Virus genome (UHGV): UHGV-0124463
Strand: one strand, 5' to 3'
Source of the DNA: a virus
Length of the DNA: 44,748 nucleotides
Shown here in pieces: positions 4,090-44,748 of this stretch. The notes under the pieces are model-generated. The model was given only the letters and a program-made list of their open reading frames with translations, was not told where the DNA came from and ran no database searches. Within the stretch, counting starts at the first letter, position 1. Each line of letters starts with the position of its first letter. The translations under genes and the position numbers were made by a program.

Positions 4090-7000
4090 ATGGCTCAGTT
4101 TCTGAACCAAGAACCGAATCCACAGGAAAAGGATTCTGCTAAGGGCGCAACACTTAAACCTGCGCCTGAGCGCGTAGATTGGAACGATGCCGGGGACAAC
4201 GGCTTAAATGCACTGGAGCGAGCCTCCTTAATGGCGCAGGCCAAGACCCCAGCTACTACAGCCGGGGAGAGCTTTGCGTCGGGTATGGGCAACAGCATCA
4301 TCGCCGCAGCTATCCGCAAGGCCTCTGCCCCGGCATTTGACCGGGACCAGAACTTTAACGCCAAGCAGACTCTGAGCAGCGACACCCGAGCTAAGCTGTA
4401 TGCTCCAAATCAGGAAGAGATTGAGTACCTGCACGATTCCGTATCGGTCGAGGATTACAACTACCGCATGCAGCAGATGCTTGAGCAACGCGACCGTGAC
4501 CGCTTAATGGCTGACAACACGGTAGCCGGGTTCGCGGGTATGTTGGTGGGTGATTCTCCGTTCATCCTGGCCCCGATGTCTGCCGCTGGTATTGCTGGCC
4601 GCGCAGGCTTAGCTGCACGGACTGCTATCCGCGCTGCTGACGTAGGCTCCGCATTCTATGCGCAGGACCAACTGGGCCAGTCTGCTGCGGTAACTGCACT
4701 GGTAGCGGGCGTAGCTGGGTTGGACCAGCTCTGGGATATGTCTAGGGCTGCTAAAGCTGCTGCTAAGGCTCGTACTGGGCGTGAGCCTATGTTCGACCCA
4801 GAAGCGCCTACAACTCGTACAGCGAGGGACGCTAATGTTACAGGAGTAGGAGAGGGAGAGGAAATCCTTACTAAGACACTGGATGAAAGCATCCAAGTAT
4901 CTAGAAACAATACCGCCTCCGTGAACATGAAAGCACAGCACGTAGTTCAGTTCTTGAAGAAGTCCGAACACTTAACAGCAGGCCAGAAGGCTATTCTGGA
5001 CACGCTGGGCGATGCTGTAAATGACATTGATTTTAAACTGGTAGCAGGCTCCGCAAACCGCAGCCGCTACACTTACGCACAGCAAGATTTAGCTAAGCGT
5101 GGAGAGGTGTCTCTACGCGCACCTAAGCGAGCTAATGGCAGCACATGGACTACAGCAGGGGACGCACTGCGTGCTATGGATGCAGACACAAGCAGGGTAG
5201 CCGTGCACGAACTGATTCATGCCGCCACTGCGCGCGCCGTTGACAGTAACCCAGAGATTGCTAAGCGCCTGGATGAAGTGCGCGCTGTTATTGCAGCGGA
5301 CTCCACCTTGACGCCGCGTATGCGGTATTACGCTAGTAATGTGCACGAGATGCTGGCAGGCTTAGGTGACAGCCCTGAGTGGGTTGAGCATCTGGCGCGG
5401 ACGAAATCCCCAACCGGTAAGAGCATGCTCCGCCAACTGGGCGAGTACATCATGAATGCCCTGGGCATCAAGGCCAAAGGTTCTGCCTTGGAAGATGTCT
5501 TGGATGCGTACGAGGACGCCGTTAAGTGGACAGCTAAGGATTATGCAGACCAAGCCCAGAGCTTCCGTAGTGAAGCCTTCCAGGACCTGGCGGGCAGCAC
5601 TACCCTAAACGAGGCTAAGGGTGCCCAAGCTATGCTGGATGGCGCTAAGAAGAAGCTCTCTACTATGTTTGCCCTGTACGATAACATCGCTCAAGGCAAT
5701 GAAGACTTGGCTAAACTGCTAGTGTCGGATGCGTCCGCAGTAGGCGGCCGTCGCCCGTCTGTAGTGGACTTCAAGCGCAACCTCACTTTGGAGATGGACG
5801 CCAGCGCTAGCGTAGTGGAAGACGCTATCCTGGGCGCGTTGAAGGATAAGGGTGTAGGTTTCTCTGAGCGCTTCTTCCATCGTAGTAAGTTCCGCGCTGA
5901 GCGGGCTGCGCTGGAGGACCGCCTGAGCAAGTACCTGGATGCTGCCTATAGCGCTGACGTAAACGGTAGAGCTGTTCCTGTGCCGGATGCAGAGATTGCC
6001 ACACTGGTTGACGCCTACCGCCGCTCTGGCTGGGCTAGCAAGTGGCACGAGCATATGCTCAATGCCGGGCTAGTGGATGATGGTGCGTTGGTTAAATCCG
6101 ACTACTACTTCCCGCGTCAGTACAGCTACGACAAGATGCGTCAAGGTATCGCACAGGGTAACACTCTGGACGACTACCGCGCCCTGTTCCGGTCCGCCTT
6201 GCGGGACGTTTACCCGAGCATGGAGTCAGAGGTAGTGCAGCGTGTTGCCAAGGAGATGGTTGACGGCATCTACAATGGCCGTGCCGGACAGTCCGGCCCT
6301 ATGTGGAAGCAGCTGATTAACGGTATGGGTAACGATGAGGTCGTTATGGCTATGCGTAGCGCCGGTGTAGAGGAGTCTGCAATCCAGAGCTTCCTGGCTG
6401 GCAACGTACGCGAATCCGGCAGCACATCCCCTGCGCGGAACCTGCGTCAGCGTACTCGGTTCAACATGGACAAAGAGTATCTGGTGAACGGTAAGAGCAT
6501 GCGCATGCAGGACCTGATGGATACTGATGTAGCCAAGGTTATGCACGGGTACACTAACCGTATGTCTGGACGTGTAGGCATGGCCTATGCAGGCGTACAG
6601 GACCTGGGACAGCTCGCTAAGATGATTGATGAGTCCAAGCACGCACTGGCGGATTCCGCTAAGTGGGAGAAGACAATCAATGACACCATCGACTTTATCC
6701 TGGGTGGGGCTCCTGCTGACGCAGGGCAGCTTCCGGATTTGCTACGCGCAGCCGGGAACATGGCTAACGCCACCATGCTTAAGAACTCCGGGCTGTATCA
6801 GCTGACGGATACTGCGCTGGCTATGAAGGAGTTCGGCATGGCTAGAGTGCTGCGCAGTATGCGTGACCAGCCTTGGTTCAAGGAAGGTGCCGTAGCTATC
6901 AAGACTCCGGATATGGCTGCCCGTCTAGACACCGTGCTGCGTGGTAATATCCAGAAGGAGATGCGCTTCCGCTGGCTGAATACGTATGCTGACGATAACT

Positions 7001-7789: not shown

Positions 7790-9415
7790 ATGGCATACAG
7801 CTGGCAAGAACAAATCAAGCCAGCTGGTACCCAGGATATCCAGTGTGATATTGAATATTTGGACAAGTCCTATATTCATGTATACCTAGACGGGGTGGAA
7901 ACTACTGGATACACCTGGACCAGCGCTACTAATATAAGACTGAACTCGGCCCTAACGACGAGCACCACTGTACTGCTAATCCGCAAGACTGAGCGCGAGT
8001 ATCTGTACATTGAATTTGCCAGCGGCTCCCCGTTCATTGAAGTGAATGTAGATTCCCAAAACACTCAGTTCTTGCACTTGGCGCAGGAGCTGGTGGAGGG
8101 GCGAGCTATACCTGGATTCTACGGTACCATTAGTATGAACGGGTACCGCATAGCTGACTTAGCCAACCCGATTAACAACCAAGACGCCGCTACCAAGTCT
8201 TATGTAGATGCCGCGGACACCTTACTGGGGCAACGCATTGACGCAGAGCATGCAGGGTGGGTGGATGCAGTAGCCGCCGAGGCAGCTACACGTAAAGCTG
8301 CAGACGACGCGCTAGATGTTCGTACTACCAACCTAGAGCAGACCTTTATCTCTGGGGAGCCTACTGTAAGCTATCCTTGGTATACTGTACTGGCTGAGGC
8401 TACTGACGAGGTAACGCCTGGATTGTCTTTCACAAAGGCTATAGTGTATGTGCAAGGCGTAAACCAGATTCCCGGCTATAGTTTTGAGGTGGTGGATAAT
8501 ACCCTACTGTTTGCAGAGGTACTTCCAGCAGGTACGTTGGTATCTGCCAGATTGGGTTATGACGCAGAGTTGTCGGAAACTTACGCCACAGCTACGGCAT
8601 TAGGGGAAGAGGCGTCAGCCAGGGCAAATGCCGATGCTCAGATAATTCTGGACTATCAAGCGGCAGTAGCGGCCAAGGCAGCCAAGGGTGCTAACTCCGA
8701 CATCACGAGCTTAAGTGGGCTGACTACTCCGCTGAGTAAAGCTCAAGGTGGTACTGGAAATACCTCTGGTGCCGCTGATTCGGCTGCAAAGCTAGCCACA
8801 GCAAGGGCCTTGGTGGTGGATTTGACGTCCACTACGCCCGCCAGTTTTGATGGTACGACCGACGCTACTCTGGGGGCAACCGGCAGTCTGCCGATTACAA
8901 AGGGGGGCACCGGGGCCGGTGACGCTGCTACTGCTAGGGCCAATCTGGGAGCAGCGGCGTCCGGTAGCAACGGCGACATCACGGCATTAACTGGGTTGAG
9001 CGGCGGTATATCCGGCTGCACTGACGGTGCAGCTGCAGCCGCCGGTGTAGTGGGGGAAGTCCTGAGTGCTGTAACTGCGGCAGCTGTAAGTGTTACTAGC
9101 GGCACCCCATTGAACGTTCTGTCCTTGAGCCTACCGGCGGGGGAGTACGAGCTTGAGAGTGCCCTGTTAGTCACTAATAGTGGCAACGTTACTGCTCTCA
9201 GTTTTGGAGTTAGTAGCACCAGCGCAGTGTTACCTAGCAACTGGTACGACTTATATTCCATAACCACCACGTTAGCGGCTGGGAATTCTTCGAGACAGGG
9301 CATGTCGCGCCGTCTACGGCTAAGTGCAACAACCACTGTGTACCTGGTAGCACAGGCCACCTTTACCGGGACCTGTACTGCCCAAGGTTATATTAGAGCG
9401 ATGAGGGTAAGATAA
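7790..9415 (+). CDS. tail fiber protein with T7 gp17-like N-terminal adaptor domain
   Basis: 541 aa; N-terminal ~150 aa resemble the T7 tail-fiber N-terminal pattern, Gly/Ala/Thr-rich distal region; position before terminase genes. Confidence 0.6.
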   Translation: MAYSWQEQIKPAGTQDIQCDIEYLDKSYIHVYLDGVETTGYTWTSATNIRLNSALTTSTTVLLIRKTEREYLYIEFASGSPFIEVNVDSQNTQFLHLAQELVEGRAIPGFYGTISMNGYRIADLANPINNQDAATKSYVDAADTLLGQRIDAEHAGWVDAVAAEAATRKAADDALDVRTTNLEQTFISGEPTVSYPWYTVLAEATDEVTPGLSFTKAIVYVQGVNQIPGYSFEVVDNTLLFAEVLPAGTLVSARLGYDAELSETYATATALGEEASARANADAQIILDYQAAVAAKAAKGANSDITSLSGLTTPLSKAQGGTGNTSGAADSAAKLATARALVVDLTSTTPASFDGTTDATLGATGSLPITKGGTGAGDAATARANLGAAASGSNGDITALTGLSGGISGCTDGAAAAAGVVGEVLSAVTAAAVSVTSGTPLNVLSLSLPAGEYELESALLVTNSGNVTALSFGVSSTSAVLPSNWYDLYSITTTLAAGNSSRQGMSRRLRLSATTTVYLVAQATFTGTCTAQGYIRAMRVR

Positions 9416-9717
9416 TGGCAGGGGCGGCTAAACGCAGTCGCCTCTCGGAGCTGCACCGCATGTTCACTGAGGCCTTGATTGAAGAAATCAAGCAGTCCAA
9501 GGAGGACGAGGTGCCGCTCCCCGCCGCAGATAAATCGGTTATCGCTAAGTTCTTGAAGGACAACGACATCACCGCGGACGCAGATTCCGAGGAGATGCAG
9601 GACCTTCGCGACGAGTTCGATGACGAACTAGCGGCGCGTAGAGAGGCGCGTAAGCAAGAGATTCTAAATAAAGTTGGTGGTTCAGACTCTGAGGACTTAC
9701 TAGAAGGAATTGTATAA
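9415..9717 (+). CDS. terminase small subunit (DNA maturase A) candidate
   Basis: 100-aa acidic protein immediately upstream of and overlapping the large terminase gene. Confidence 0.45.
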   Translation: MAGAAKRSRLSELHRMFTEALIEEIKQSKEDEVPLPAADKSVIAKFLKDNDITADADSEEMQDLRDEFDDELAARREARKQEILNKVGGSDSEDLLEGIV

Positions 9718-11573
9718 TGGTATCGGTGAAGACTGCGCGAAGACTGCGCATGCTCAACCAGAAACTTACTGGTTATAGTGCGAATCCGCGCAGTATTCCC
9801 AAAGAGGAGCGCGAGGACATCGCGATGATGATGGCCGCCGCGTTAAGTGACTTCCGGGAATTCGCGTACATCGGTATGCGATTCCTGGGTTTTACGCTGA
9901 CGGACATGCAGGCCGACATTGCAGAGTACATGCAGAAGGGCCCTAGGAAGCGCATGGTGGCTGCGCAGCGTGGTGAGGCTAAGTCTACACTAGCTGCGCT
10001 CTACGCCGTCTGGAGGCTCATACAGGACCAATCCTGCCGCATCCTGATTGTGTCCGGTGCAGAGAAGCAGGCGTCCGACGTTGCGAACCTTATCATCCGT
10101 ATGCTGGAAACCTGGCCGCTGCTGTGCTACTTGAAGGCTGACCCTACTCGTGGGGACCGTACTTCATTCGAAGGCTATGATGTCAACTGCGACCTGAAAC
10201 CGCTGGACAAATCCGCCAGCGTAGCCTGTGTAGGTATCACTGCATCCCTGCAGGGGAAGCGCGCGGACCTGCTGATTCCAGATGATATCGAGACCACCAA
10301 GAACGGTTTAACGCAAACCCAGCGTGAGCAGCTGCTGATGATTTCTAAAGACTTCGCAGCTATCTGTACGCACGGGGATACGCTGTACCTGGGCACACCG
10401 CAGACCAAGGACAGTATCTATAAAACCCTGCCGGGACGTGGCTTCGAGGTCCGCGTATGGCCCGGGCGCATTCCGTCTGTTGAAATGGAAGAGCGATATG
10501 GAAGTACACTTGCTCCTTATATCCTGGAGCTTATTGAGCGCGGCTATAAACGCACCGGCTTCGGCGTCGACGGGACGCTAGGCGAGAGCACGGACACCGG
10601 GCGCTATGACGAGGATGCGCTGATTGAGAAGGAGCTGGACTTTGGTCCAGAAGGCTTCCAGCTGCAGTACATGCTCGACACTACTCTGTCCGACCAGATG
10701 CGTACGCGCATCAAGCTTTCTGATATGCTGGTTTACTCCGGCAGCCAGGATTCCTCCCCGGAGACATTCTCCTACATTGCGGACCGCAGGTACCTGTACC
10801 AGCACGAGCATGAGGGGATTATGGGTCAGCAGATGTACTTCCCGGCATTCTACGGGGACATGCACCTGCCGTACCAGCATAAGGTACTGGTGGTGGACCC
10901 GGCTGGTTGTGGTGGGGACGAAGTGTCCTACGCTGCTGGAGGTGCTGCGAACTCGTACATTCACCTATTCTCCGTAGGCGGATTCCAAGGAGGTATCAGC
11001 GAAGAGAACATTGATAAACTGATTGACCTGTGTGTAGAGTTGGACATCCCGGATATGGTGGTGGAGAGCAATATGGGGCACGGTACCGTGTCTATGCTTA
11101 TCCTGAACCGATTACGTGAGCGGCGTCTCGCCGGTATCGGTGTAAGGGACCTGAATAACTCCACGCAGAAAGAGCGTCGTATCATCGACACAATCAGCCC
11201 AGTTACTCGTCGCCATCGCCTGGTAGTGCATGAGCGTGCTATTCACGACGATATCAGTACCTGTATGGCATATTCCCGCGATAGGCGTTGGCTGTACTCT
11301 GCGTTCGCGCAGTTGTCTGGTATCACGTACGACCGCGGTAGCCTTGCGAAGGATGACCGGGCAGACGCAATCGCCATGATGGTGGCTACGCTGAATGGGC
11401 ATCTGGTGGAAGATGAGAAAGTGGTGGCTGAGCGTGAGTCTGAGAAGATGGCTCGGGCCTTCATTGAGAACCCACTGGATTGGGCACAGAGCAAAGTGTC
11501 TAAGGGCCTTCGTGGTGTAGCTGCTCGGCTACATAACCGGGGCAGAGGTAAACAACATAGAGGAAGAAGATAA
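9717..11573 (+). CDS. terminase large subunit (DNA maturase B)
   Basis: 618 aa; Walker-A-like AAQRGEAKST, ATPase and nuclease acidic motifs; T7 gp19-like size and position. Confidence 0.8.
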   Translation: MVSVKTARRLRMLNQKLTGYSANPRSIPKEEREDIAMMMAAALSDFREFAYIGMRFLGFTLTDMQADIAEYMQKGPRKRMVAAQRGEAKSTLAALYAVWRLIQDQSCRILIVSGAEKQASDVANLIIRMLETWPLLCYLKADPTRGDRTSFEGYDVNCDLKPLDKSASVACVGITASLQGKRADLLIPDDIETTKNGLTQTQREQLLMISKDFAAICTHGDTLYLGTPQTKDSIYKTLPGRGFEVRVWPGRIPSVEMEERYGSTLAPYILELIERGYKRTGFGVDGTLGESTDTGRYDEDALIEKELDFGPEGFQLQYMLDTTLSDQMRTRIKLSDMLVYSGSQDSSPETFSYIADRRYLYQHEHEGIMGQQMYFPAFYGDMHLPYQHKVLVVDPAGCGGDEVSYAAGGAANSYIHLFSVGGFQGGISEENIDKLIDLCVELDIPDMVVESNMGHGTVSMLILNRLRERRLAGIGVRDLNNSTQKERRIIDTISPVTRRHRLVVHERAIHDDISTCMAYSRDRRWLYSAFAQLSGITYDRGSLAKDDRADAIAMMVATLNGHLVEDEKVVAERESEKMARAFIENPLDWAQSKVSKGLRGVAARLHNRGRGKQHRGRR

Positions 11574-11947
11574 TGGCATCAATCATCGCAGCTAAAACTG
11601 CGGACGTCCAGTACTCCATTGTAGGCACGTGCCAGAACCTGGAGAAGCAGGTGCAGCCGGACTACAACGTAGGCTTCGTAGGTACGACTGCCCTGACTAA
11701 GCTGAACGCGTTCTTCACGTACATGCAGTCCCAGGGCTATACGGCTACCCGTGCCGGTACAGCCTTTAAGGATGACGGTACGCTGCAGGCGCGCCTGTTC
11801 AGCATGCTGTCACAGCTCTCTAAGACCGGCTACGTTGCCCTTACAGGTACAGGTATGCCGCTCGGTGAGGGCTCCGGTACAGCGTTTGATGATTCGTTCA
11901 CTGCACTGCAGAGTGCATTCGTAGCCGCCACTGATGCGGCAGAATAA
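11573..11947 (+). CDS. hypothetical protein
   Basis: 124-aa ORF, start overlaps terminase stop (ATGA-type junction). Confidence 0.4.
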   Translation: MASIIAAKTADVQYSIVGTCQNLEKQVQPDYNVGFVGTTALTKLNAFFTYMQSQGYTATRAGTAFKDDGTLQARLFSMLSQLSKTGYVALTGTGMPLGEGSGTAFDDSFTALQSAFVAATDAAE

Positions 11948-11958
11948 GGAGAGTACAC

Positions 11959-12141
11959 ATGGCAATTGCAAAAGCAACCTCAGCGCAACAGCAGGAGCTG
12001 TTGCGTCAGCTGAACATTCTCGGTAAGGACCTGTATGCTATCCTTACGCAGCCGCAGAACGTGGCCCAGACTGGTGCTGCCTTCGATACCAAGATTGCTG
12101 CGCTTGAAGCCGCGGTGGCCGCAGTGAAGGCTGCTAGCTAA
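11959..12141 (+). CDS. hypothetical small protein
   Basis: 60-aa ORF with RBS GGAGAG upstream, Ala/Gln-rich helical-looking. Confidence 0.35.
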   Translation: MAIAKATSAQQQELLRQLNILGKDLYAILTQPQNVAQTGAAFDTKIAALEAAVAAVKAAS

Positions 12142-12545
12142 TGCGTAAACTGGTCGCTGGGTTGCTGCTCGCGGTTACTCTGACTGGTTGCTCGGCGACC
12201 TCTGCACTCACCGGCTTAGTTGGTTCTAAGCCGGATGTATCTGCTCAGGTTGGTGCCGAGAACACCAAACAAACCGTTGGCTTGAATAACAAGGTGGACT
12301 CCAGCACCACCAACAAAACTGATGTACAGGATTCTAACGTAGGCACTTTGGACACGTCCAGTAAGAAGCAGGTGCAAACTATTAGCACCGGGACAATCCA
12401 GGCAGAACGCCTGCAGGTGGTTAACAATGATAGTTACAGTCTTATCCTCGCCGGATTAGCTGGGGCCAGTATTCCTCTGGTCTTCCTAGTGGTCATTCTG
12501 GTGATTCGTAAGCTGTTCAGGAAGAAGGGGCAGCAGGATGATTAA
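12141..12545 (+). CDS. spanin-like lipoprotein with C-terminal transmembrane anchor (unimolecular spanin candidate)
   Basis: N-terminal signal plus lipobox LTGC, Ser/Thr-rich periplasmic region, C-terminal hydrophobic helix followed by RKLFRKK. Confidence 0.5.
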   Translation: MRKLVAGLLLAVTLTGCSATSALTGLVGSKPDVSAQVGAENTKQTVGLNNKVDSSTTNKTDVQDSNVGTLDTSSKKQVQTISTGTIQAERLQVVNNDSYSLILAGLAGASIPLVFLVVILVIRKLFRKKGQQDD

Positions 12546-12789
12546 GGTGGGAGACATGGTTGGAGCAGACCTCGCTACCCGGGCAGGTGCAGCAGTTACC
12601 GGCGCTACGGTATCAGGAGGTTGGTTGGCAGAGTTAATGAGCTGGAACTGGAGCACTATCAGCTTCATCACTGCGACTGTGTGCGCAGTGCTAACCCTGG
12701 CGTGGAATGCGTATTACAAGCGACGTACATTCAAGCTCCTAGAAGAGCAGGCGCGTAAGGGGACTATTAAATATGAGTTTAAGGACTAA
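12538..12789 (+). CDS. holin (pinholin-like) candidate
   Basis: 83 aa, weakly hydrophobic Gly/Ala-rich first segment and strongly hydrophobic second helix, charged C-terminus; sits immediately upstream of the SAR endolysin. Confidence 0.45.
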   Translation: MIKVGDMVGADLATRAGAAVTGATVSGGWLAELMSWNWSTISFITATVCAVLTLAWNAYYKRRTFKLLEEQARKGTIKYEFKD

Positions 12790-13381
12790 GGTTATTGCGG
12801 CCCTCACGGGGGCCACTATGCTGGGTGGTGCTATTACCGGGGTGGTTCAGCACAACGAGGGATTGAGCCTTACCGCCTATAAGGATAGTGCCGGTGTCCC
12901 TACAATCTGCTACGGGGAGACAAAGGGCGTCAAGATGGGCCAGAGAGCCACGCTGAGCGATTGTCAGAAGCAACTGATAGAATCAGCAGGGGCACATGCA
13001 AAGGCTCTTGACGGGCTTCCTATGCAGCTCTCTGACGTAGCTCTGGTTGGGTCTGTAGACTTCATTTATAACGTAGGCGTAGCTGGCTTCAACGGCAGTG
13101 CTGTGAAGCGGCACCTCAAAAGCCTGAATTACGCAGAAGCTGGAAAGGCCGTACTGGACTGGCGCTATATTAGCAAGTATCAGCAGAAATCCCCGGGCAT
13201 CGGTTGGGTGTACAAGGGCAGCAACCGCTGGACCTTCGACTGCTCTCAGTATATTAACGGGCAGCGCAATAAAGTGTGCTGGGGCCTATGGGAGCGCAGA
13301 CAGTGGCAGAGCAAGGCCATTGGGAATCAGTATAAGAATGTAAATGCTGCAGTGGCAGCTCTTACTAAGACCGGAGGATAA
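12773..13381 (+). CDS. SAR endolysin, T4-lysozyme-type muramidase
   Basis: N-terminal signal-anchor-release-like segment VIAALTGATMLGGAITGVV; catalytic E-8aa-D-5aa-T in NEGLSLTAYKDSAGVPT. Confidence 0.75.
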   Translation: MSLRTKVIAALTGATMLGGAITGVVQHNEGLSLTAYKDSAGVPTICYGETKGVKMGQRATLSDCQKQLIESAGAHAKALDGLPMQLSDVALVGSVDFIYNVGVAGFNGSAVKRHLKSLNYAEAGKAVLDWRYISKYQQKSPGIGWVYKGSNRWTFDCSQYINGQRNKVCWGLWERRQWQSKAIGNQYKNVNAAVAALTKTGG

Positions 13382-15337
13382 ATGGCGTTAATTAGATTAG
13401 TAGCTCCAGAGCGGGTATTCTCCGACTTGGCGAGCATGGTAGCATATCCAAACTTTCAGGTACAGGACAAGATTATCCTGCTGGGCAGCGCCGGTGGGGA
13501 CTTCACCTTTACTACTGCCGCGTCGGTAGTGGATAACGGAACTGTGTTTGCTGTACCTGGTGGGTATCTACTCCGTAAATTCGTGGGTCCGGCATACAGC
13601 TCCTGGTTCAGCAATTGGGCGGGCATAGTAACGTTCATGAGCGCACCTAATAGGCACCTGGTTGTGGACACAGTCCTGCAGGCCACGAGTGTGCTCAACA
13701 TCAAAAGCAACTCTACGCTGGAGTTTACTGATACCGGAAGAATCCTGCCGGATGCCTCGGTTGCACGTCAAGTGCTTAACATTATCGGCTCGGCACCCTC
13801 GGCATTCGTCCCGTTAGCGGCGGATGCCACAGCGGGCAGCAAAGTCATTACGGTGGCTGCCGGGGCTTTGTCTGCGGTAAAAGGTACGTACTTGTATCTT
13901 CGCTCTAACAAGCTGTGTGATGGTGGTCCTAACACCTACGGTGTAAAGATTTCCCAGATTAGGAAAGTGGTGGGGGTTAGCACCTCCGGTGGCGTCACCA
14001 GTATTCGGCTGGATAAAGCGCTGCACTATAACTACTACCTGTCTGATGCCGCGGAAGTAGGTATCCCGACAATGGTGGAGAACGTAACCTTAGTATCCCC
14101 GTACATCAACGAGTTCGGCTACGACGATTTGAACCGGTTCTTTACTATCGGTATCTCTGCCAACTTTGCCGCGGACTTGCACATCCAGGACGGGGTTATT
14201 ATTGGCAACAAACGCCCCGGGGCTTCTGATATAGAAGGGCGTAGTGCTATCAAGTTCAATAACTGCGTAGATAGTACCGTTAAGGGTACGTGCTTCTACA
14301 ACATCGGATGGTACGGGGTAGAGGTGCTCGGCTGCTCAGAGGACACGGAAGTACACGATATCCACGCCATGGACGTACGCCACGCAATCTCTCTGAACTG
14401 GCAGAGCACTGCAGACGGGGACAAGTGGGGAGAGCCTATCGAGTTCTTAGGCGTTAACTGCGAAGCCTACAGCACAACCCATGCCGGGTTTGATACTCAC
14501 GACATTGGTAAGCGTGTGAAGTTCGTTCGCTGCGTTTCATACGACAGTGCTGACGATGGGTTCCAAGCGCGCACTAACGGGGTAGAGTACTTGAACTGTC
14601 GAGCTTACCGCGCAGCATTTGATGGGTTCGCCTCCAACACCGGTGTAGGCTTCCCTATCTATAGAGAGTGCTTAGCTTATGACAACGTACGCTCTGGCTT
14701 TAACTGTTCGTACGGTGGTGGCTACGTTTATGACTGTGAGGCTCACGGTAGCCAGAACGGTGTCCGCACCAACGGAGGTTGTGTTAAAGGCGGTCGGTAC
14801 ACTCGCAACTCCAGCTCTCACATCTTCGTCACTAAGGATGTAGCTGAGACGGCGCAGACGTCCCTGGAGATTGATGGCGTGAGCATGCGCTACGACGGTA
14901 CCGGAAGAGCTGTGTACTTCCACGGGACTATGGGCATTAACCCTACCATGGTATCTATGTCCAATAATGACATGACCGGTCACGGCTTGTCCTGGGCATT
15001 ACTGAGTGGCTACACTGTTCAACCTACGCCTCCGCGCATGTCCAGGAACTTACTGGATGACACAGGTATCCGTGGAGTGGCAACGCTGGTTGCTGGCGAG
15101 GCTACAGTCAACGCCCGTGTACGCGGAAACTTTGGCAGCGTAGCTAACTCCTTCAAGTGGGTGTCTGAGGTTAAGTTGACGCGGTTAACCTTTCCTTCTA
15201 GTGCTGGGGCCTTGACGGTTACTGGCGTAGCACAGAACCAGGATGTACCTACACCTAATCCGGACCTAAACAGCTTCGTGATTAGGAGTAGTAACGCAGC
15301 GGATGTATCCCAGGTAGCCTGGGAGGTGTATCTCTAA
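13382..15337 (+). CDS. tailspike / polysaccharide depolymerase candidate
   Basis: 651 aa, rich in Gly/Asn/Thr/Val with periodic beta-strand-like repeats and scattered Cys; placed after the lysis cassette. Confidence 0.45.
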   Translation: MALIRLVAPERVFSDLASMVAYPNFQVQDKIILLGSAGGDFTFTTAASVVDNGTVFAVPGGYLLRKFVGPAYSSWFSNWAGIVTFMSAPNRHLVVDTVLQATSVLNIKSNSTLEFTDTGRILPDASVARQVLNIIGSAPSAFVPLAADATAGSKVITVAAGALSAVKGTYLYLRSNKLCDGGPNTYGVKISQIRKVVGVSTSGGVTSIRLDKALHYNYYLSDAAEVGIPTMVENVTLVSPYINEFGYDDLNRFFTIGISANFAADLHIQDGVIIGNKRPGASDIEGRSAIKFNNCVDSTVKGTCFYNIGWYGVEVLGCSEDTEVHDIHAMDVRHAISLNWQSTADGDKWGEPIEFLGVNCEAYSTTHAGFDTHDIGKRVKFVRCVSYDSADDGFQARTNGVEYLNCRAYRAAFDGFASNTGVGFPIYRECLAYDNVRSGFNCSYGGGYVYDCEAHGSQNGVRTNGGCVKGGRYTRNSSSHIFVTKDVAETAQTSLEIDGVSMRYDGTGRAVYFHGTMGINPTMVSMSNNDMTGHGLSWALLSGYTVQPTPPRMSRNLLDDTGIRGVATLVAGEATVNARVRGNFGSVANSFKWVSEVKLTRLTFPSSAGALTVTGVAQNQDVPTPNPDLNSFVIRSSNAADVSQVAWEVYL

Positions 15338-15433
15338 GTAGCTCCCTGGGGTATCTCTATGGTATCCCGGGGCACTACTTGGGGTGCACGTCTATACCTG
15401 GACCTGAAATTTATTAGACTTTAAAATGAGGAT

Positions 15434-15895
15434 ATGTCTATGAACATCAAATATGACACAACATCCCCTAGCTGCTTGGTGTGGCTCAAGGGTAGGCGCG
15501 CCGGTGCTCCAGCGGGTACCCGCAACACTCGTGGCTACTGGGTGGTACAGGTATCTGGTAGAAAGATACAGGCACACCGCCTCATCTGGGAACTACACAA
15601 CGGGCCTATTCCAGACGGATATGTGGTGGACCACATCAACCAAAACCCCAGTGACAACCGCCTAGAGAACCTGCGCTTGGCTACTCTCAGTGAGAATAAC
15701 TGCAATGCTCGCAGGGCTGAGCGCGAACACCCTAGAGGCGTATACTACACTGGCACTTGCTGGCGCGGGGAGTTCTGGAAGGACGGTAAGCGTTATATGA
15801 AGAAGCACAGCTCCTACGAGGTTATCTGCAAGTGGGTACAAGAGAAACGTCAAGAGCAACACAAGGCCTTCACCCCGGGGCAGGTGTATATCTGA
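15434..15895 (+). CDS. HNH homing endonuclease with AP2-like DNA-binding domain
   Basis: Motif VVDHINQNPSDNRLENLRLATLSEN followed by GVYYTGTCWRGEFWKDGKRY. Confidence 0.75.
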   Translation: MSMNIKYDTTSPSCLVWLKGRRAGAPAGTRNTRGYWVVQVSGRKIQAHRLIWELHNGPIPDGYVVDHINQNPSDNRLENLRLATLSENNCNARRAEREHPRGVYYTGTCWRGEFWKDGKRYMKKHSSYEVICKWVQEKRQEQHKAFTPGQVYI

Positions 15896-16425
15896 AACCA
15901 AAAATTATTATACTCGCCCTTGGGCCTCCCTCACCCTCAGCGCGAGCAATTGCCCCCATAGGGGGTGCCTAGCGCATAAACAGAGGGGGTGGGGCCACCT
16001 AGGGCGCACTAGTAGGCACCAGCGGGCCTCAGCGGGCCTGTGCTGCGTTCTAGTGCTATCGCTAGTGCTACCCTATGGCTATCCCTGTGCGTTCACTAGG
16101 GCGCTTCCTGTGCGCTCTCTGTGGGCCATAGGGGTGCGCTCTGCCTTACCTATTTTGTGCGCCTCAGTGTGGCACCTAGGGGCGTGTCCATTGCTTATTT
16201 TGCGCGTCCATAGTGGGCCCGCCTAGTGCGCTGTAGTGCGTCACGGTGCTATCCCTAGTATGCACTAGGCGATCCACTGGCTATCCCTAGTGCTTTACAT
16301 TGTGCCGATTATATGCTACGCTGCGCGCTCCCCCCTAGGGCGCACATCCTCACCCAACACTATCCCGGCGCTATCTCTTTGCTATCCTTTTGCTCTTACT
16401 TTCATTCGAAAGCTGTCATGAAATG
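15896..16425. repeat. repeat-rich non-coding region (short direct repeats and recurring 10-mer CTAGGGCGCA); probable genome-terminus region
   Basis: No credible ORF; CTAGGGCGCA at 15999 and 16335 (9/10 at 16096; also 17330), tandem cagcgggcct x2, repeated ctagtgcta and ctatccct. Confidence 0.5.
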
Positions 16426-16442
16426 ATGTTACAGGAGTAGGA
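16426..16442 (+). promoter_or_regulatory. copy of 17-bp motif ATGTTACAGGAGTAGGA (candidate phage RNAP promoter)
   Basis: Exact match to copies at 4834..4851 and 37985..38002; in non-coding DNA. Confidence 0.4.
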
Positions 16443-16633
16443 GGGTTTTAGGGCACTATATACACACTACTTACTACTACTCACTAGTAGTCACTAGTAT
16501 CCCCTAGTAATGCCCTGTATGACTGACCGTAGGGAGGGAAGCATTACCTAGAATCTTGTAACCTCCGCTCCTATCCCTCCGGGATATCGTCGCTATGGTT
16601 ACGCTACTAATCACTATGTAAGGAGATATTGTT

Positions 16634-17020
16634 GTGGCTAGAACATTTAAGATTGTGGTTGATAAGGAAGGTTATCCAGTGATTAATGGTGCTGGGCCTG
16701 AGTATGTGAATAAGCGAGGTAAGAGAGACTATAAGACTGTGGCGCTGCATAGGGCCGTGGTTATGGATGCTCTGGGAATCACTAGCTACGGTTCTGGCTA
16801 TCACGTACATCACTGTGACAGTAACCGCCTTAACTGTGACTTCAATAACCTGATACTGGTTAGCGCTGACACTCACCGGGCCATACACTTAGCACAGATT
16901 CAGGAAGGGAGATGCTTCACAAAGGATGAGTTATTGGCTAGTCCTGAGTACGATACTAACTGGCGAGAGTTCTACGTGACTTATGGGGACTACAATAGTT
17001 TACTGCACGCAGACCTTTAG
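16634..17020 (+). CDS. HNH endonuclease
   Basis: GTG start after RBS TAAGGAGA; motif HVHHCDSNRLNCDFNNLILVSADTHRAIH. Confidence 0.6.
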   Translation: MARTFKIVVDKEGYPVINGAGPEYVNKRGKRDYKTVALHRAVVMDALGITSYGSGYHVHHCDSNRLNCDFNNLILVSADTHRAIHLAQIQEGRCFTKDELLASPEYDTNWREFYVTYGDYNSLLHADL

Positions 17021-17070
17021 GGGTCTGCTTACTCTTTTTGCTCCCAGTGATAAAAAGTTTAAAAAAGTAC

Positions 17071-17100
17071 TTGCTTCTTTTGGTTCAATAGGGCTATAGT
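17071..17100 (+). promoter_or_regulatory. sigma70-like promoter candidate (TTGCTT-N18-TATAGT) with A-rich upstream element
   Basis: Read directly; preceded by gataaaaagtttaaaaaag. Confidence 0.35.
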
Positions 17101-17202
17101 TCAATCACCGGGAGGCACTGAGGCGCTAACCGGGGCAGAGTCGGGAGATTCAGCCGGATTAAAGCTAGATAGTGTGAAGGGTTAGACACTCAATAAAAAG
17201 AG

Positions 17203-17231
17203 TTGACACCGCGAAGAACATAAGCTAGATT
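17203..17231 (+). promoter_or_regulatory. sigma70-like promoter candidate (TTGACA-N17-TAGATT)
   Basis: Consensus -35 hexamer and 17-bp spacer read directly. Confidence 0.45.
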
Positions 17232-17271
17232 GAATCCCGAAGTAAGCAGTAAGGCAGTAAGAAATAAACGC

Positions 17272-17300
17272 TTGACAAGTTCTGATTCACTGAGTAACTT
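17272..17300 (+). promoter_or_regulatory. sigma70-like promoter candidate (TTGACA-N17-TAACTT)
   Basis: Consensus -35 hexamer and 17-bp spacer read directly. Confidence 0.4.
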
Positions 17301-17650
17301 AGATAGCGAACAAGGCAAGGATAACCACTCTAGGGCGCAAGGATGTGTGTCCCGTCGGATTAGGCTAGACGTTAAAAATGACCTCTTAAAGGTTTAGTAG
17401 TAAGCTGGTTTGCGGGGAGGCCCAGTACCTTGACTGGTACGTTGACGACCCACCCCTAGACAATCAGTTAAAGAGTAAACGTGCCGGACGTTATCACCGG
17501 GGTTCTGAGGCAAACCATACTGCCGAGGCGAGAGCAGCTCGCTCCTCTGAATCGAGGGAACAAGGCGCGGAGTGTATCCCGCAAAGAGCATATAACATAG
17601 CGCAGCAGTAACAAGGTTGCGCTAGATTATGTTCTCTGAGAGGTAAGAGT

Positions 17651-17848
17651 ATGCGCAAATCAAAGCGTTTAGCATTACGGCGGAATATGCAATTATCACT
17701 GAATCCCACCGACGACGTGCCGCTTACTGTGAAGCCTAGCAAACAAGGGTTGAGCAGTGAGCACAGGGTGAGGGGAAAGCAAAAACAAAAGGGCAGTAGC
17801 AGGCAGCCATCTGGATGGCCTACTGTTAACTCCCAATTTGGTCGATAA
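17651..17848 (+). CDS. small basic hypothetical protein (first early ORF)
   Basis: 65 aa, Lys/Arg-rich, strong RBS GAGAGGTAAGAG before ATG. Confidence 0.4.
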   Translation: MRKSKRLALRRNMQLSLNPTDDVPLTVKPSKQGLSSEHRVRGKQKQKGSSRQPSGWPTVNSQFGR

Positions 17849-17919
17849 TTACAGCCTATAGCATCCTACGGGGTGCTATGTGAAGTAATTACCTAAACAA
17901 CCAATCAAAGAGGTGCATT

Positions 17920-18519
17920 ATGACCCATTCAACTGGTAAAGTATTCAAGCTCACCGCTGCGGGCAGCATTCGTAAAGCGCTGGGCGACGTAGTGGAAGCA
18001 AAGCGCAACATCACTATTAGCGCGCTCTTCCACGGCCTGATTAGCAGCAACGTTTCCTGGGCTATGGATATGCAGCGCAGCGATGCCGCGGACTTTGATA
18101 TGGTGCTGCGTACGCTGCTGCCAATCAAGTTCAACAAAGAGTCCGGCAAGTACGAATTCAACGCTAAGAAGTGCTATGCGTCGGCTGAAAAGCTGGGTAT
18201 CGAACTGGACAGTATGCGTCTGGATTACAAGCAAGCTGACAAGCAAGGCCGCGAAGTAATCGTAGCCAGCTTCTATAGCTCCTGTATGGCCCTGTACGCT
18301 GCCGAAGCGGAGCGGGTGAAGAATGACGCGCTGGATGCCGATGCAGTGCGCTTGCAAGCGCTGGGGCGCGTTAAAAACGCCATCAAGAAGGCTAAAGAGA
18401 CTGGTGTAAGCGATGCTGACCTCGTGTCTATGCTGGTATCGCAAGGCGTGGACGTACGCGCTGTACTGGACGCCGTGAATCTTGGCATTATCACCGATTG
18501 GAGACAACTCTATGGTTAA
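17920..18519 (+). CDS. hypothetical early protein
   Basis: 199-aa ORF with balanced composition, RBS-like AAAGAGG upstream. Confidence 0.5.
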   Translation: MTHSTGKVFKLTAAGSIRKALGDVVEAKRNITISALFHGLISSNVSWAMDMQRSDAADFDMVLRTLLPIKFNKESGKYEFNAKKCYASAEKLGIELDSMRLDYKQADKQGREVIVASFYSSCMALYAAEAERVKNDALDADAVRLQALGRVKNAIKKAKETGVSDADLVSMLVSQGVDVRAVLDAVNLGIITDWRQLYG

Positions 18520-35510: not shown

Positions 35511-37976
35511 TTGACAATGCTAACCTATGTACAGAACCCAGAAGCAGAGTTAGTACAGCGCCAGCTGGAGCTCGAAGAGACCTATAAGATTCGCGGAATC
35601 GAGCGGGCACGTAAGCTGATTACGGACGCATTGCAGAACGGTGGGATTATGAACCTGCCGATGACGCAGCGTATGCTCACCTCAGCATACGAGGTGGCTG
35701 CTGCTGCTATCGATGAGATGCGAAATGTCAAAGCCCCAGGCATTGGCGGCAAGTATCGCCGGTTCCTGCGCTTAATCCCCTTGGATGTCCTGACCACCCT
35801 GAGCCTGTGCACAATGTTTGAGGCGTTCAGCGTCGCCCCAGGTGAGTCCGCCAGTCGCCGCCAGACTGCACAAGCAGTAATGTCCGCATTGGGTAGGAAC
35901 GTGCAGTCAGAGCTACTGGCTCTGCAGTTACGTAACGTAGCCCCTGCGTACATGGACCGTGTGTACGAGTACCTCACTGAGCGCCGTACGAAGTCCCCTT
36001 CGCACATCCTGCGTACGCTCCGTGCCAGTGCCGAGAACGTGCACTATGGGCACGAGCCTTGGACCAATGCCCAGAACATCTCCGTAGGGCGTCTGCTGTG
36101 TGCCGCGGTGTTTGAGACGGGCCTGTTCCAGTGGAAGACAGGTAGCGGGAACCTGAGCATGCTCTACCCAGCTGATGACGTTATGGAGGCCTTCCAGAAA
36201 CTGGTGGAATCTGCCGACACTGTAACGATGAAGCCGCCTATGCTGGTCCCCCCGGTGCAGCACACCACTATGTGGGGTGGTGGGTACCTTACTCCTATCG
36301 ACAACCGCGGTACTTACCATAACTCGCACATCGACCGAGCCAGGCTGCGTGAAGTAGCGGAAGCATTTAAGTCCGCGGACGGCATCAAGAAGGCGCTTAA
36401 TAAGGCACAGGAAACCCCGTACCGTATTAATAAGCGCATACTGGAACTGGTGCAAGAAGCACGGGCCATGGGTATTGGGGTGGGTATGCCCCGCTCAGTT
36501 CCGGAGCCCAAGCCAGAGTGGTATCTGGACGGGGTGCCGAAAGAGAACTACACCGAAGAAGAACTGGACCGCTTCGGTGAGTGGAAGACGCGTATGTCCC
36601 TATGGTACAGCGCAGACCGTAAGCGCGTGTCTCAACTACGTAGCCTGTTGACCACGCTGGAAATGGCGGAGGAATTCAAAGATGAGAAAGCTCTGTACTT
36701 CCCAACCTGTGTGGATTGGCGGTACCGGTTGTACTTCAAGTCCTCGCTGCACCCTCAAGGTTCTGATTTGCAGAAAGCCCTTCTTGAGTTTGGTAGAGGA
36801 AAACCTCTGGGTGATCGCGGCTTATTCTGGCTCAAGGTGCATGTCGCCACATGCTTTGGTTATGACAAGACCCTATTCGAAGACCGCGCAGCTTGGGTTG
36901 ATGCGAACTTTGCAGAGATTGAGCAGCTTACAGTTTCACCGTTTGATTGCCCTGCTTTCACCTCCGCGGACAGCCCTTGGTGCCTGCTGGCCGCCGCTAT
37001 CGACTTGGTTAATGCGGTTCGTTCTGGATGCCCAGAAGAGCATATTAGCCGAATCCCAGTTGCTATGGACGCTACAAACTCAGGTGGACAGCATCTCTCA
37101 GCGCTCCTGAGAGACCCTGTGGGCGGACGCTTGACGAACCTGTACTGGGAGGGTAATGATAAGAAAGCGGACCTGTACATGGACGTGAAGCGCCGTACGG
37201 ACGAGAAGGTGATACTGGACCTGGACAAGGAGGATTTCGTTATCCAGAGCACGTACTGGAGAGAGAACGAAATCACCCGCAGCATGACCAAGCGCCCTAG
37301 TATGACCTACTTCTACAGCGCCACTGTGCGCAGCTGCAGCGACTACATCTTCGAAGGCGCTTGCGCTGAGGGGTACGAGGGTACTGAGACTAACAGTCTG
37401 TGGAACTTGTCATGCTACCTGGCTCCGCGTATGCGCACTGCTATCGAGGAGGCAAACCCAGCCGCAGCCGCAGTTATGGGGTACTTGCAGAACCTCGCTA
37501 GGCGTGTACCGGCAAGCCAGCATCTGCAGTGGTATACGCCGCTGGGTGGGCTCGTAATGAACCGCTACACGCAGCGTGAAGAAGTGCGCGTACGTATTGA
37601 CTGCATGAACCTGTCAGCGGTACTGGTACACAACCGGGACTTCAAAACTTGCAACAAGCGCAAGGCAGCCTCCGGGATTGCCCCGAACTTTGTGCATAGC
37701 CTGGACAGTACGCACTTGATGATGGTGCTCTGTGCTGCGGAGGGGTTGGACATTGTGCCTATTCACGACTCGCTGGCTACTCACGCAGCTGACGTTGACG
37801 CTATGCATAGGCACATCCGTGAGCAGTTTGTGCGCCTGTATGAAGAGAATGACCTGCTTGGCGACATTACTCGCGCGGCAGCAGCAGCCGGGGCAGACTT
37901 GACGGACCTGGACATGCCGGAAGTGGGCACTTTGGACATCCGGCAAGTGCTAGAATCCCCGTTCTTCTTCTGCTAA
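35511..37976 (+). CDS. single-subunit DNA-dependent RNA polymerase (T7 RNAP family)
   Basis: 821 aa; blocks matching T7 RNAP: FPTCVDWRYRLY, DATNSGGQHLSALLRD, ASGIAPNFVHSLDSTH, IHDSLATH, C-terminal LESPFFFC. Confidence 0.9.
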   Translation: MTMLTYVQNPEAELVQRQLELEETYKIRGIERARKLITDALQNGGIMNLPMTQRMLTSAYEVAAAAIDEMRNVKAPGIGGKYRRFLRLIPLDVLTTLSLCTMFEAFSVAPGESASRRQTAQAVMSALGRNVQSELLALQLRNVAPAYMDRVYEYLTERRTKSPSHILRTLRASAENVHYGHEPWTNAQNISVGRLLCAAVFETGLFQWKTGSGNLSMLYPADDVMEAFQKLVESADTVTMKPPMLVPPVQHTTMWGGGYLTPIDNRGTYHNSHIDRARLREVAEAFKSADGIKKALNKAQETPYRINKRILELVQEARAMGIGVGMPRSVPEPKPEWYLDGVPKENYTEEELDRFGEWKTRMSLWYSADRKRVSQLRSLLTTLEMAEEFKDEKALYFPTCVDWRYRLYFKSSLHPQGSDLQKALLEFGRGKPLGDRGLFWLKVHVATCFGYDKTLFEDRAAWVDANFAEIEQLTVSPFDCPAFTSADSPWCLLAAAIDLVNAVRSGCPEEHISRIPVAMDATNSGGQHLSALLRDPVGGRLTNLYWEGNDKKADLYMDVKRRTDEKVILDLDKEDFVIQSTYWRENEITRSMTKRPSMTYFYSATVRSCSDYIFEGACAEGYEGTETNSLWNLSCYLAPRMRTAIEEANPAAAAVMGYLQNLARRVPASQHLQWYTPLGGLVMNRYTQREEVRVRIDCMNLSAVLVHNRDFKTCNKRKAASGIAPNFVHSLDSTHLMMVLCAAEGLDIVPIHDSLATHAADVDAMHRHIREQFVRLYEENDLLGDITRAAAAAGADLTDLDMPEVGTLDIRQVLESPFFFC

Positions 37977-37984
37977 AAAATTTA

Positions 37985-43062: not shown

Positions 43063-44748
43063 ATGGCGCAATCATTAGAAGGTACTATTCAGAGCTTGCT
43101 GCAGGGCGTTTCCCAGCAGGTTCCGAGAGAGCGCCAACCAGGACAACTGGGGGCGCAGCTGAACATGCTCAGCGACCCGGTTTCCGGTATCCGCCGCAGA
43201 CCCCCGGGTGAGATTGTCTGGGAAAGCACGATTGATAATCCAGGGCTTGATTCCCTGTTCACTGAATACGTAGAGCGTGGAACTGACGGCAGGCACCTGC
43301 TGATTAACACCAGCAACGGTAACTGGTGGTTACTGGCTAAGAATGGAAAGACCATCCTTAACTCCGGAAACGACCCGTACTTTATTACCACCGTGGGTCA
43401 GACCTCTTTGCAGACCGCGAGTATTGCTGGACTGACTTATATCCTGAATACGGAGATGGCCCCGAACACAACCGTGGACAATACGGGGCGTATTGACCCA
43501 GGCACCACTGGGTTCTTCTACGTTAAATCTGCAGCATTCCAGAAACGCTGGAACGTCACTGTTACATCTGCCGGGGTAGATTACTCCGGGGACTACACCG
43601 CCCCAGCTGCTGGCAGTACCAGTGGTAACGCTGAGGAGGTATCAGGTGCCTACGTTGCTCAGCAGCTGCGAGACTCTCTTGTAGCGAATGGATTGCCAGC
43701 TGGGAACGTTAGCGTACGCGGCGCATACTTGTTCTTCTATGGGTTGAGCAACTGTGTGGTATCCTCCGACGCTGGCGATACTTATGCTGGGGTATCCAAC
43801 CAGTCTCGTGTAGACCAGGAGCAGGACCTACCTGCACAGCTCCCAGCGCAAGCTGACGGGGCGATGTGTCGTGTAGGTACAGCCTCGTCTGAGACAGCGT
43901 GGTACCAGTTCAGCTACAGCACCCGCACCTGGTCTGAGGTGGGAGCGTACGGCAGCATCACCAAGATTACGAACATGCCCCGAGAGCTTGCTGCAGATGA
44001 CAACATTATTGCGCGGGATTGGGAGGGGCGTTTAGCTGGTAACGACGACAATAACAGCGACCCCGGATTCGTGGAGAATGGATACATCACCGGCATTGCA
44101 GCTTTCCAGGGCCGCTTGGTTCTGCTTAGTGGTAGCTCCGTGGATATGTCTGCCTCAGGTCTGTACCAGCGCTTCTACCGCTCCACTGTGACGTCTCTGC
44201 TGGATACGGACCGTATCAGCATTAGCTCTGCGTCTGCACAGGATTCTGTGTATCGTACCGCTGTGCAGTTCAACCGGGACTTGGTCCTGTTTGCTAACAG
44301 CATGCAGGCGGTTGTGCCGGGTTCAGCGGTACTCACCCCCACTAACGCAAGTATTAGCATCACCAGCACCTACGAGTGTGATAGCCGTGTGACTCCGGTA
44401 ATGGCGGGGCAGACGGTAATCTACCCGAATAAGCGCAACAACAGCTACGCGGGTATACTGGAGCTAATCCCATCACCATATACTGCGGCGCAGTACACTA
44501 CGCAGGACGCCACGGTGCACCTGCCGCGGTACATTCCCGGCAGGGTATTGCAGATGCAAAACTCCAGTGTCACCAATATGGCCTTCTCACGAATGTCCGG
44601 AGAGCGAAATAACCTGCTGGTCTATGAGTTTATGTGGGGTGGGAGTGATGGTGCTAAGATGCAAGCGTCGTGGCATAAATGGACGTTCCCATATCCAATC
44701 CTGAGCGTGCAGGCGCTGGAGGATGAGGTGTTCTTGTATATGCAAGGG
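43063..44748 (+). CDS. tail tubular protein B (T7 gp12-like), 5' portion; continues at window start
   Basis: ATG 43063 after AAGGAGAGG; frame stays open to the last base and continues in frame into 32..748 via the 54-bp repeat. Confidence 0.7.
   Translation, partial: MAQSLEGTIQSLLQGVSQQVPRERQPGQLGAQLNMLSDPVSGIRRRPPGEIVWESTIDNPGLDSLFTEYVERGTDGRHLLINTSNGNWWLLAKNGKTILNSGNDPYFITTVGQTSLQTASIAGLTYILNTEMAPNTTVDNTGRIDPGTTGFFYVKSAAFQKRWNVTVTSAGVDYSGDYTAPAAGSTSGNAEEVSGAYVAQQLRDSLVANGLPAGNVSVRGAYLFFYGLSNCVVSSDAGDTYAGVSNQSRVDQEQDLPAQLPAQADGAMCRVGTASSETAWYQFSYSTRTWSEVGAYGSITKITNMPRELAADDNIIARDWEGRLAGNDDNNSDPGFVENGYITGIAAFQGRLVLLSGSSVDMSASGLYQRFYRSTVTSLLDTDRISISSASAQDSVYRTAVQFNRDLVLFANSMQAVVPGSAVLTPTNASISITSTYECDSRVTPVMAGQTVIYPNKRNNSYAGILELIPSPYTAAQYTTQDATVHLPRYIPGRVLQMQNSSVTNMAFSRMSGERNNLLVYEFMWGGSDGAKMQASWHKWTFPYPILSVQALEDEVFLYMQG

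Follow-up and report, generated by a model that had tools for sequence, protein, structure and literature searches.

Does the stretch of about 740 bp that separates two HNH endonuclease genes in the virus genome UHGV-0124463 (positions 15896–16633) hold the physical ends of the packaged DNA? The window analysed here is the whole deposited sequence, 44,748 nucleotides of one strand read 5′ to 3′, and all coordinates refer to it. The initial annotation, made from the letters alone, described the stretch as repeat-rich and non-coding, likened it to the short-repeat arrays of T7-like phages and placed the true linear ends in it or just downstream. Each motif that it listed is found in the sequence where it had been placed. 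By comparison with relatives of known genome structure, we conclude that the region is very probably the concatemer junction of a Drulisvirus genome lying within a circularised short-read assembly.

The affiliation of the window is clear. Between 248 and 251 phage records match here, nearly all of them Klebsiella Drulisvirus; for 15400–17700 there are 248, at 80–92% identity, and the best records reach only 79–91% over the gene-free region. The source is a Drulisvirus (KP34-like; Autographiviridae, Slopekvirinae; T7-supergroup), and its end region is that of an ordinary member of a kind already known. All long ORFs lie on the plus strand, and from 9717 to 15337 they match VKV295 ORF for ORF and in length (terminase, two hypotheticals, spanin, holin, endolysin, tail fibre). 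The genes that bear on the question are these:

9415–9717, plus strand: terminase small subunit (Pfam DNA_Packaging_2, E = 1.7e-19)
9717–11573, plus strand: terminase large subunit (Pfam Terminase-T7_RNaseH-like, E = 1.3e-30)
13382–15337: tail spike (Pfam K1-capsule lyase domains: N-terminal, Rider, C-terminal)
15434–15895, plus strand: HNH endonuclease gene, the last before the right end (Pfam HNH_3, E = 2.9e-22)
16634–17020, plus strand: HNH endonuclease gene, the first after the left end (Pfam HNH_3, E = 1.5e-7)
35511–37976, plus strand: single-subunit RNA polymerase (Pfam RNA_pol, E = 6.7e-88)

Judged by its domains, the terminase is of the T7 type, and the junction would be the expected substrate of both subunits. 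The RNA polymerase shares 98% identity with its KP34 counterpart. The K1 capsule-specific lyase domains of the tail spike suggest that the host is a Klebsiella with capsule type K1.

The ends of the window itself are of a different nature. Its final 54 nt (44695–44748) duplicate nt 20–73, and both of its ends fall within the tail tubular protein B gene, which indicates a circularised assembly with an arbitrary opening point. The first 19 nt (CAACCGATGCATTCAGTGA) match neither the rest of the window nor the relatives; taken with the duplicated stretch, they suggest an overlap left by assembly and a short artefact. The unique circle thus comprises about 44,675 bp. Collapse of terminal repeats during assembly is usual in T7-like phages (PMC10438801).

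To locate the ends we aligned the window to eight relatives with annotated terminal repeats:

KP34 (GQ413938.2): 216 bp
KpV71: 246 bp
Kp_Pokalde_001 (Pokalde): 247 bp
AttikonH2: 214 bp
AttikonH5: 215 bp
AttikonH4: 297 bp
VKV295: 181 bp, corresponding to window 15968–16144, an outlier
fHe-Kpn01 (MN380459): 222 bp, experimentally mapped

The termini of fHe-Kpn01 are blunt, as established by PhageTerm, restriction digests, fragment ligation and Sanger sequencing (PMC7291057). Some other repeat annotations, for example those of SU503 and SU552A, were set by homology to KP34 (PMC4411677). The repeat starts at window 15928/15929 in seven of the eight relatives, with the boundary sequences CCTCACCC... 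and CCTCACCCT..., and finishes at window 16140–16144 in all eight, where ...GTGCGCTC is followed by TGCC and ...GGGGTGCGCTC by TGCCTT. At both boundaries the window agrees with the aligned relatives exactly or almost exactly. These shared starts and finishes lead to a predicted repeat at 15929–16141, with cuts between 15928 and 15929 and between 16141 and 16142; the expectation that the physical ends lie in or just downstream of the region is thereby borne out by homology, which puts both cuts inside it. Two records count against a shared left end: that of VKV295 is annotated 39 nt further in, at 15968, and OU509534 begins at about 15945 of the window. The features around the two predicted cuts are as follows:

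15880–15928, plus strand: unique right-end sequence before the repeat, made up of the last HNH-gene codons and a 33-nt spacer; conserved
15929–16141, unstranded: predicted direct terminal repeat, 213 bp, from alignment to relatives with annotated repeats
15953–15965, unstranded: CCCCCATAGGGGG (CCCCC-ATA-GGGGG), nt 25–37 counted from 15929
16130–16160, unstranded: conserved right-end cut sequence, GGGGTGCGCTC before the cut and TGCCTTACCTATTTTGTGC after it, near-invariant in 36 Drulisvirus sequences

A direct terminal repeat at 15929–16141, present as a single collapsed copy, is strongly supported by these alignments. No second copy of the 213 bp was found anywhere in the window, as expected where the assembly has collapsed both ends into one. 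The virion DNA is predicted to begin 5′-CCTCACCCTCAG... at 15929 and to finish ...GGGGTGCGCTC-3′ at 16141; a genome opened at 15929 would measure about 44.9 kb (about 44,675 unique bp plus 213 bp).

Conservation is concentrated at these two cuts, among other places. A profile of 36 Drulisvirus sequences, taken from a collection of viral contigs, has its highest values at 15929–15975, 16050–16160, 16246–16350 and 16380–16460, and over the 50 nt that precede the left cut. These approximately 50 nt are also conserved in 25 junction-spanning Drulisvirus contigs, and window 15880–15928 is near-identical to the sequence ahead of the right repeat of fHe-Kpn01. KP34 and fHe-Kpn01 share with the window the boundaries themselves (CCTCACCCT... 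on the left, ...GCGCTC before the cut on the right), the CCCCCATAGGGGG element, the conserved block at 16246–16350 described below, a left-end promoter about 480–510 nt from the end in each, and the order of the genes that flank the junction. They differ from it in the interior of the repeat and at 16160–16245, two variable stretches where indels reach 82 nt, and in the HNH genes, which in the window phage flank the junction on either side. At the right-end cut, no common motif was found across the subfamilies compared.

The sequence upstream of the left cut takes two forms: AAATTTATTAGACTCACGCGAG, which contains GACTCAC, occurs in most relatives (loci L015–L063), and the window has the diverged form AAAATTATTATACTCGCCC. 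The 7-mer GACTCAC also forms part of the T7 promoter consensus.

On the model of T7, the junction would be used in the following manner. Replication would yield concatemers with one copy of the repeat per junction. A T7-type terminase would recognise conserved sequence on either side of each cut, including CCCCCATAGGGGG 25 bp inside the left end, and would cut between 15928 and 15929 and between 16141 and 16142; DNA synthesis would duplicate the repeat, giving a packaged genome with a copy at each end. The phased short repeats and conserved blocks would most likely serve as sites of protein binding or bending, candidate terminase sites that assist cutting.

The element CCCCCATAGGGGG is invariant in the 36 Drulisvirus sequences, lies at nt 25–37 from the left end also in loci L167, L168, L169, L170 and L173, and occurs as the same 13-mer in T7 at nt 26–38 from the T7 left end, while T7 and Drulisvirus otherwise share no DNA similarity. 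T7 starts TCTCAC...CCCCCATAGGGGGTACCTA (TCTCACAGTG...CCCCCATAGGGGGTACCTAAAG) and the window, read from 15929, CCTCAC...CCCCCATAGGGGGTGCCTA (CCTCACCCTC...CCCCCATAGGGGGTGCCTAGCG). In T3, gh-1, SP6, K1-5 and phiKMV a related CCCC[AG]TAG begins 25–30 nt inside the left end as deposited, a placement expected by chance with a probability of roughly 5e-4 per genome; in LKA1, LIMElight and Syn5 a variant of the C-run occupies the corresponding place. From nine genomes we derived a left-end signature (a C-run or CCCC[AG]TAG about 25–30 nt from the terminus), and the window carries it as CCCCCATAGGGGG at nt 25–37. When the collection was scanned for the bare 14-mer CCCCCATAGGGGGT, many unrelated contigs matched; the anchored pattern CTCAC-N15-24-CCCCCATAGGGGGT returned mostly contigs of Drulisvirus size (about 43–44 kb), and T7. 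A full-text search, beyond whose reach lie the classic T7/T3 packaging papers, found no description of the CCCCCATAGGGGG/CCCC[AG]TAG element.

The initial annotation had read the same letters as a hairpin. The sequence is present at 15953–15965, but its stem as single-stranded DNA is worth only –4.7 kcal/mol (z = –0.7) and the 3′ arm of the palindrome is not kept in T3 and phiKMV. We therefore set the hairpin reading aside as weak and take CCCCCATAGGGGG as a double-stranded sequence element and a candidate terminase site. That T7 carries it equally far from its terminus points to a sequence rule by which the ends of Autographiviridae genomes could be located. We put forward, as a tentative proposal more apt to fail than to hold, that the C-run/CCCC[AG]TAG is an Autographiviridae-wide terminase positioning signal that measures the left cut, with the CTAG-rich, ~11-bp-phased repeats and the 105-bp conserved block forming a wrapping surface for the small subunit. 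If so, the recognition site of the left-end cut would be defined for the T7 supergroup and ends could be predicted from sequence alone; this site is not known to have been defined family-wide at the sequence level.

To the right of this element begins the repeat-rich part of the region:

15986–16400, unstranded: degenerate ~11-bp array (CTAGGGCGC, CAGCGGGCCT twice, CTAGTGCTA, GCTATCCCT, CTGTGCGC and others), from autocorrelation and CTAG and k-mer enrichment

The array covers the inner part of the terminal repeat and 260 bp to its right. That the region is rich in repeats holds well above chance. CTAG occurs 16 times in 15896–16633, where the genome-wide density predicts 1.8 (Poisson p ~1e-10), the highest count among all sliding windows of the genome; the number of repeated 8-mers is 41, compared with 8.5 ± 4.1 (maximum 24) for equally long windows elsewhere; and self-similarity by autocorrelation peaks at lags of 10–13, 22–23, 32–35 and 44–45 (z up to 5.3). 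Individual units include a tandem pair of CAGCGGGCCT at 16020–16039, CTAGTGCTA at 16050 and 16062, and CTATCCCT at 16079, 16249, 16281 and 16571. The 10-mer CTAGGGCGCA, presented earlier as a motif of the region, has three exact copies, all on the plus strand, at 15999, 16335 and 17330 (0.19 expected; three or more copies in none of 100 shuffles), and a copy matching at nine of ten positions, CTAGGGCGCT, at 16096. Positional conservation is confined to some of the repeat copies: the one at 15999 sits in a variable stretch, and that at 17330 falls outside 15896–16633, amid the host promoters, and is probably incidental, since it is absent from the early-region sequence compared for VKV295, AttikonH4 and fHe-Kpn01. 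The left ends of T7, T3, SP6, phiKMV and gh-1 show the same 11–13-nt periodicity, so the comparison with T7-like repeat arrays proved correct. A role of the short repeats as packaging signals is one that we infer only.

Two further conserved elements lie within or beside the right part of the array:

16246–16350, plus strand: near-invariant block of about 105 bp, 90–100% conserved across the 36 sequences, with both flanks variable
16399–16412, plus strand: palindrome CTTTC-ATTC-GAAAG (contains TTCGAA), invariant in the alignments, 11 nt upstream of the phage promoter

The block includes a universally conserved copy of CTAGGGCGCAC at 16335–16345 and the promoter-like TTTACA-N17-TACGCT (16294–16322), which scores 8/12, under the threshold of the sigma-70 scan; no sigma-70 promoter at threshold was found by the scan within 15896–16633. 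The fold of the palindrome stands out against shuffles (z = –3.5). A scan of 15300–18100 against Rfam at E ≤ 1 gave no match, so a known RNA family does not explain the region.

In its right third, from 16424 onwards, the region changes character, and here its description as an end structure, which stands for the repeat part, gives way to a phage promoter and the leader of an HNH gene that the initial annotation had not recognised:

16424–16439, plus strand: predicted strong promoter of the phage RNA polymerase, TGATGTTACAGGAGTA, identical at 16 of 16 positions to the KP34 promoter at nt 475–490
16440–16633, plus strand: leader predicted to be transcribed, with 10-nt tandem units (ACTCACTAGT-like, 16468–16499) and a ribosome-binding site AAGGAG at 16621–16626
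17203–17231, plus strand: host sigma-70 early promoter TTGACA-17-TAGATT, from the scan; outside 15896–16633, downstream
17272–17300, plus strand: host sigma-70 early promoter TTGACA-17-TAACTT, from the scan; outside 15896–16633, downstream

The KP34 promoter at nt 475–490 is active in vitro with the KP34 RNA polymerase (Lu et al. 2019, PMC6834552), and the two host promoters have the same sequences as those put forward for Kp34-like viruses by prediction (PMC4411677 Table 3). The promoter core ATGTTACAGGAGTA at 16426–16439 had been noticed before as a motif copy at 16426. Transcription would be expected to start at G 16440. Exact promoter copies are found at 16424, at 37983, just after the RNA polymerase gene, and at 4833; for KP34-type promoter matches with up to three mismatches, 0.37 are expected. 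Counted from the predicted left end they stand at 496, 22055 and 33580, in synteny with 475, 22197 and 33721 of KP34, and a weak promoter at 37929 is syntenic as well. The 16-nt sequence of the KP34 promoter (T(A/G)ATGTTACAGGAGTA with its initiating G), its copy number and its positions are thus the same in the window, whereas other Drulisvirus have variants at the same place, for example TGAAGTTACCGGAGTA and TGAAGTAACCGGAGTA. By its position the 16424 promoter is the left-end promoter, the counterpart of T7 phiOL: in T7 and T3, phiOL lies between the repeat and the host promoters, as the 16424 promoter does in the window.

This arrangement also lends itself to a different account, namely that the array and the conserved block are mainly a replication origin or an entry-related signal and not a packaging one, with the 16424 promoter priming replication and the 11-bp units binding a replication or host protein. 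T7 itself can use phiOL as a secondary origin, and the promoter of the window is placed as phiOL is in T7 and T3; the ~11-bp phasing of the units resembles iterons, and the sequence after the promoter, with its tandem 10-nt units, is repeat-rich and more AT-rich. Against this, the array lies partly inside the terminal repeat and conservation peaks at both cut sites, and we regard a main role as origin or entry signal as unlikely, though it deserves to be kept in mind. It is compatible with the terminal-repeat explanation.

Some relatives are annotated with small proteins at this locus, which would make the repeats incidental. Short CDSs are placed over homologous DNA in KpV71 (kpv71_01) and in the Attikon phages (hypothetical proteins), and the window has one forward ORF of at least 50 aa in the region, at 16053–16226 (57 aa, GTG start). 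This ORF would straddle the boundary of the terminal repeat, however, and in the homologous segment all seven aligned relatives have stops or length changes that shift the frame: the length differs by non-multiples of three in five of the seven, in-frame stops precede the end of the segment in six, and the alignment includes a 31-nt indel. Given such stops and frameshifts we rejected a coding reading of the ORF, in agreement with the earlier view that 15896–16633 has no credible ORF. No 3-nt coding periodicity appeared in the self-similarity analysis of the region; combined with self-similarity at ~11 bp, this identifies a degenerate array and not coding sequence. We give a protein-coding origin of the region hardly any weight.

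Equally improbable is headful packaging of a circularly permuted genome, in which the region would be an intergenic regulatory zone without fixed ends: the assembly does close to a circle, as that of a permuted genome would, but the terminase domains are of the T7 type, a close relative has experimentally shown blunt, fixed termini, many relatives are deposited with identical starts and repeats at both ends, and the left-end element of T7 is found at the right distance.

If the region is read as a concatemer junction, its layout can be compared directly with the left end of T7, where a 160-bp terminal repeat is followed on its right by a short-repeat array (called SRL), phiOL and then the host promoters A1–A3. 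The window has its elements in the same order: repeat, short-repeat array, phage promoter, host promoters. In both phages the terminus begins YCTCAC, CCCCCATAGGGGG followed by T-R-CCTA stands 25–26 nt from the end, and a short motif recurs every 11–13 nt, both within the repeat and on its right. Beyond this there is no nucleotide similarity between them, and the promoter sequences are unrelated. The repeated motif is based on CTAG in the window and is CCTAAAG in T7. T7 has copies of the CCTAAAG/CCTAAGG type just ahead of the right repeat, where the window has only 33 non-coding nt, and the window, unlike T7, has an HNH gene between the phage promoter and the host promoters. For A0, the leftward host promoter of T7, no counterpart was found in the window; a minus-strand TATAAT at 16308–16313, picked out by eye, was rejected because it has no usable –35 and is not conserved.

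The left HNH gene (16634–17020) is accessory: among relatives it is present in only some, including VKV295 and AttikonH4. Homology to relatives that do not have it ends near 16550, and the first 893 nt of KP34 carry no annotated CDS. The HNH genes that flank the junction probably represent mobile insertions of the homing type, placed at the ends of the genome. A terminator-like hairpin, GCAGACCTTTAGGGGTCTGC with a T-rich tail (17009–17028), overlaps the last codons and the stop of the left HNH gene and lies directly ahead of the host early promoters.

Correct ends matter for annotation, for comparative genomics and for the engineering of therapeutic Klebsiella phages. Here the practical value is in annotation, the assembled sequence having been opened within a tail gene and with no second copy of the repeat.

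Among Drulisvirus the left-end promoter occurs in at least four variants (TGATGTTACAGG, TGAAGTTACCGG, TGAAGTAACCGG and TGAAGTTACAGG; loci L001, L002 and L005–L010). These variants may track two groups of RNA polymerase specificity loops, which were described by Eriksson et al. 2015.
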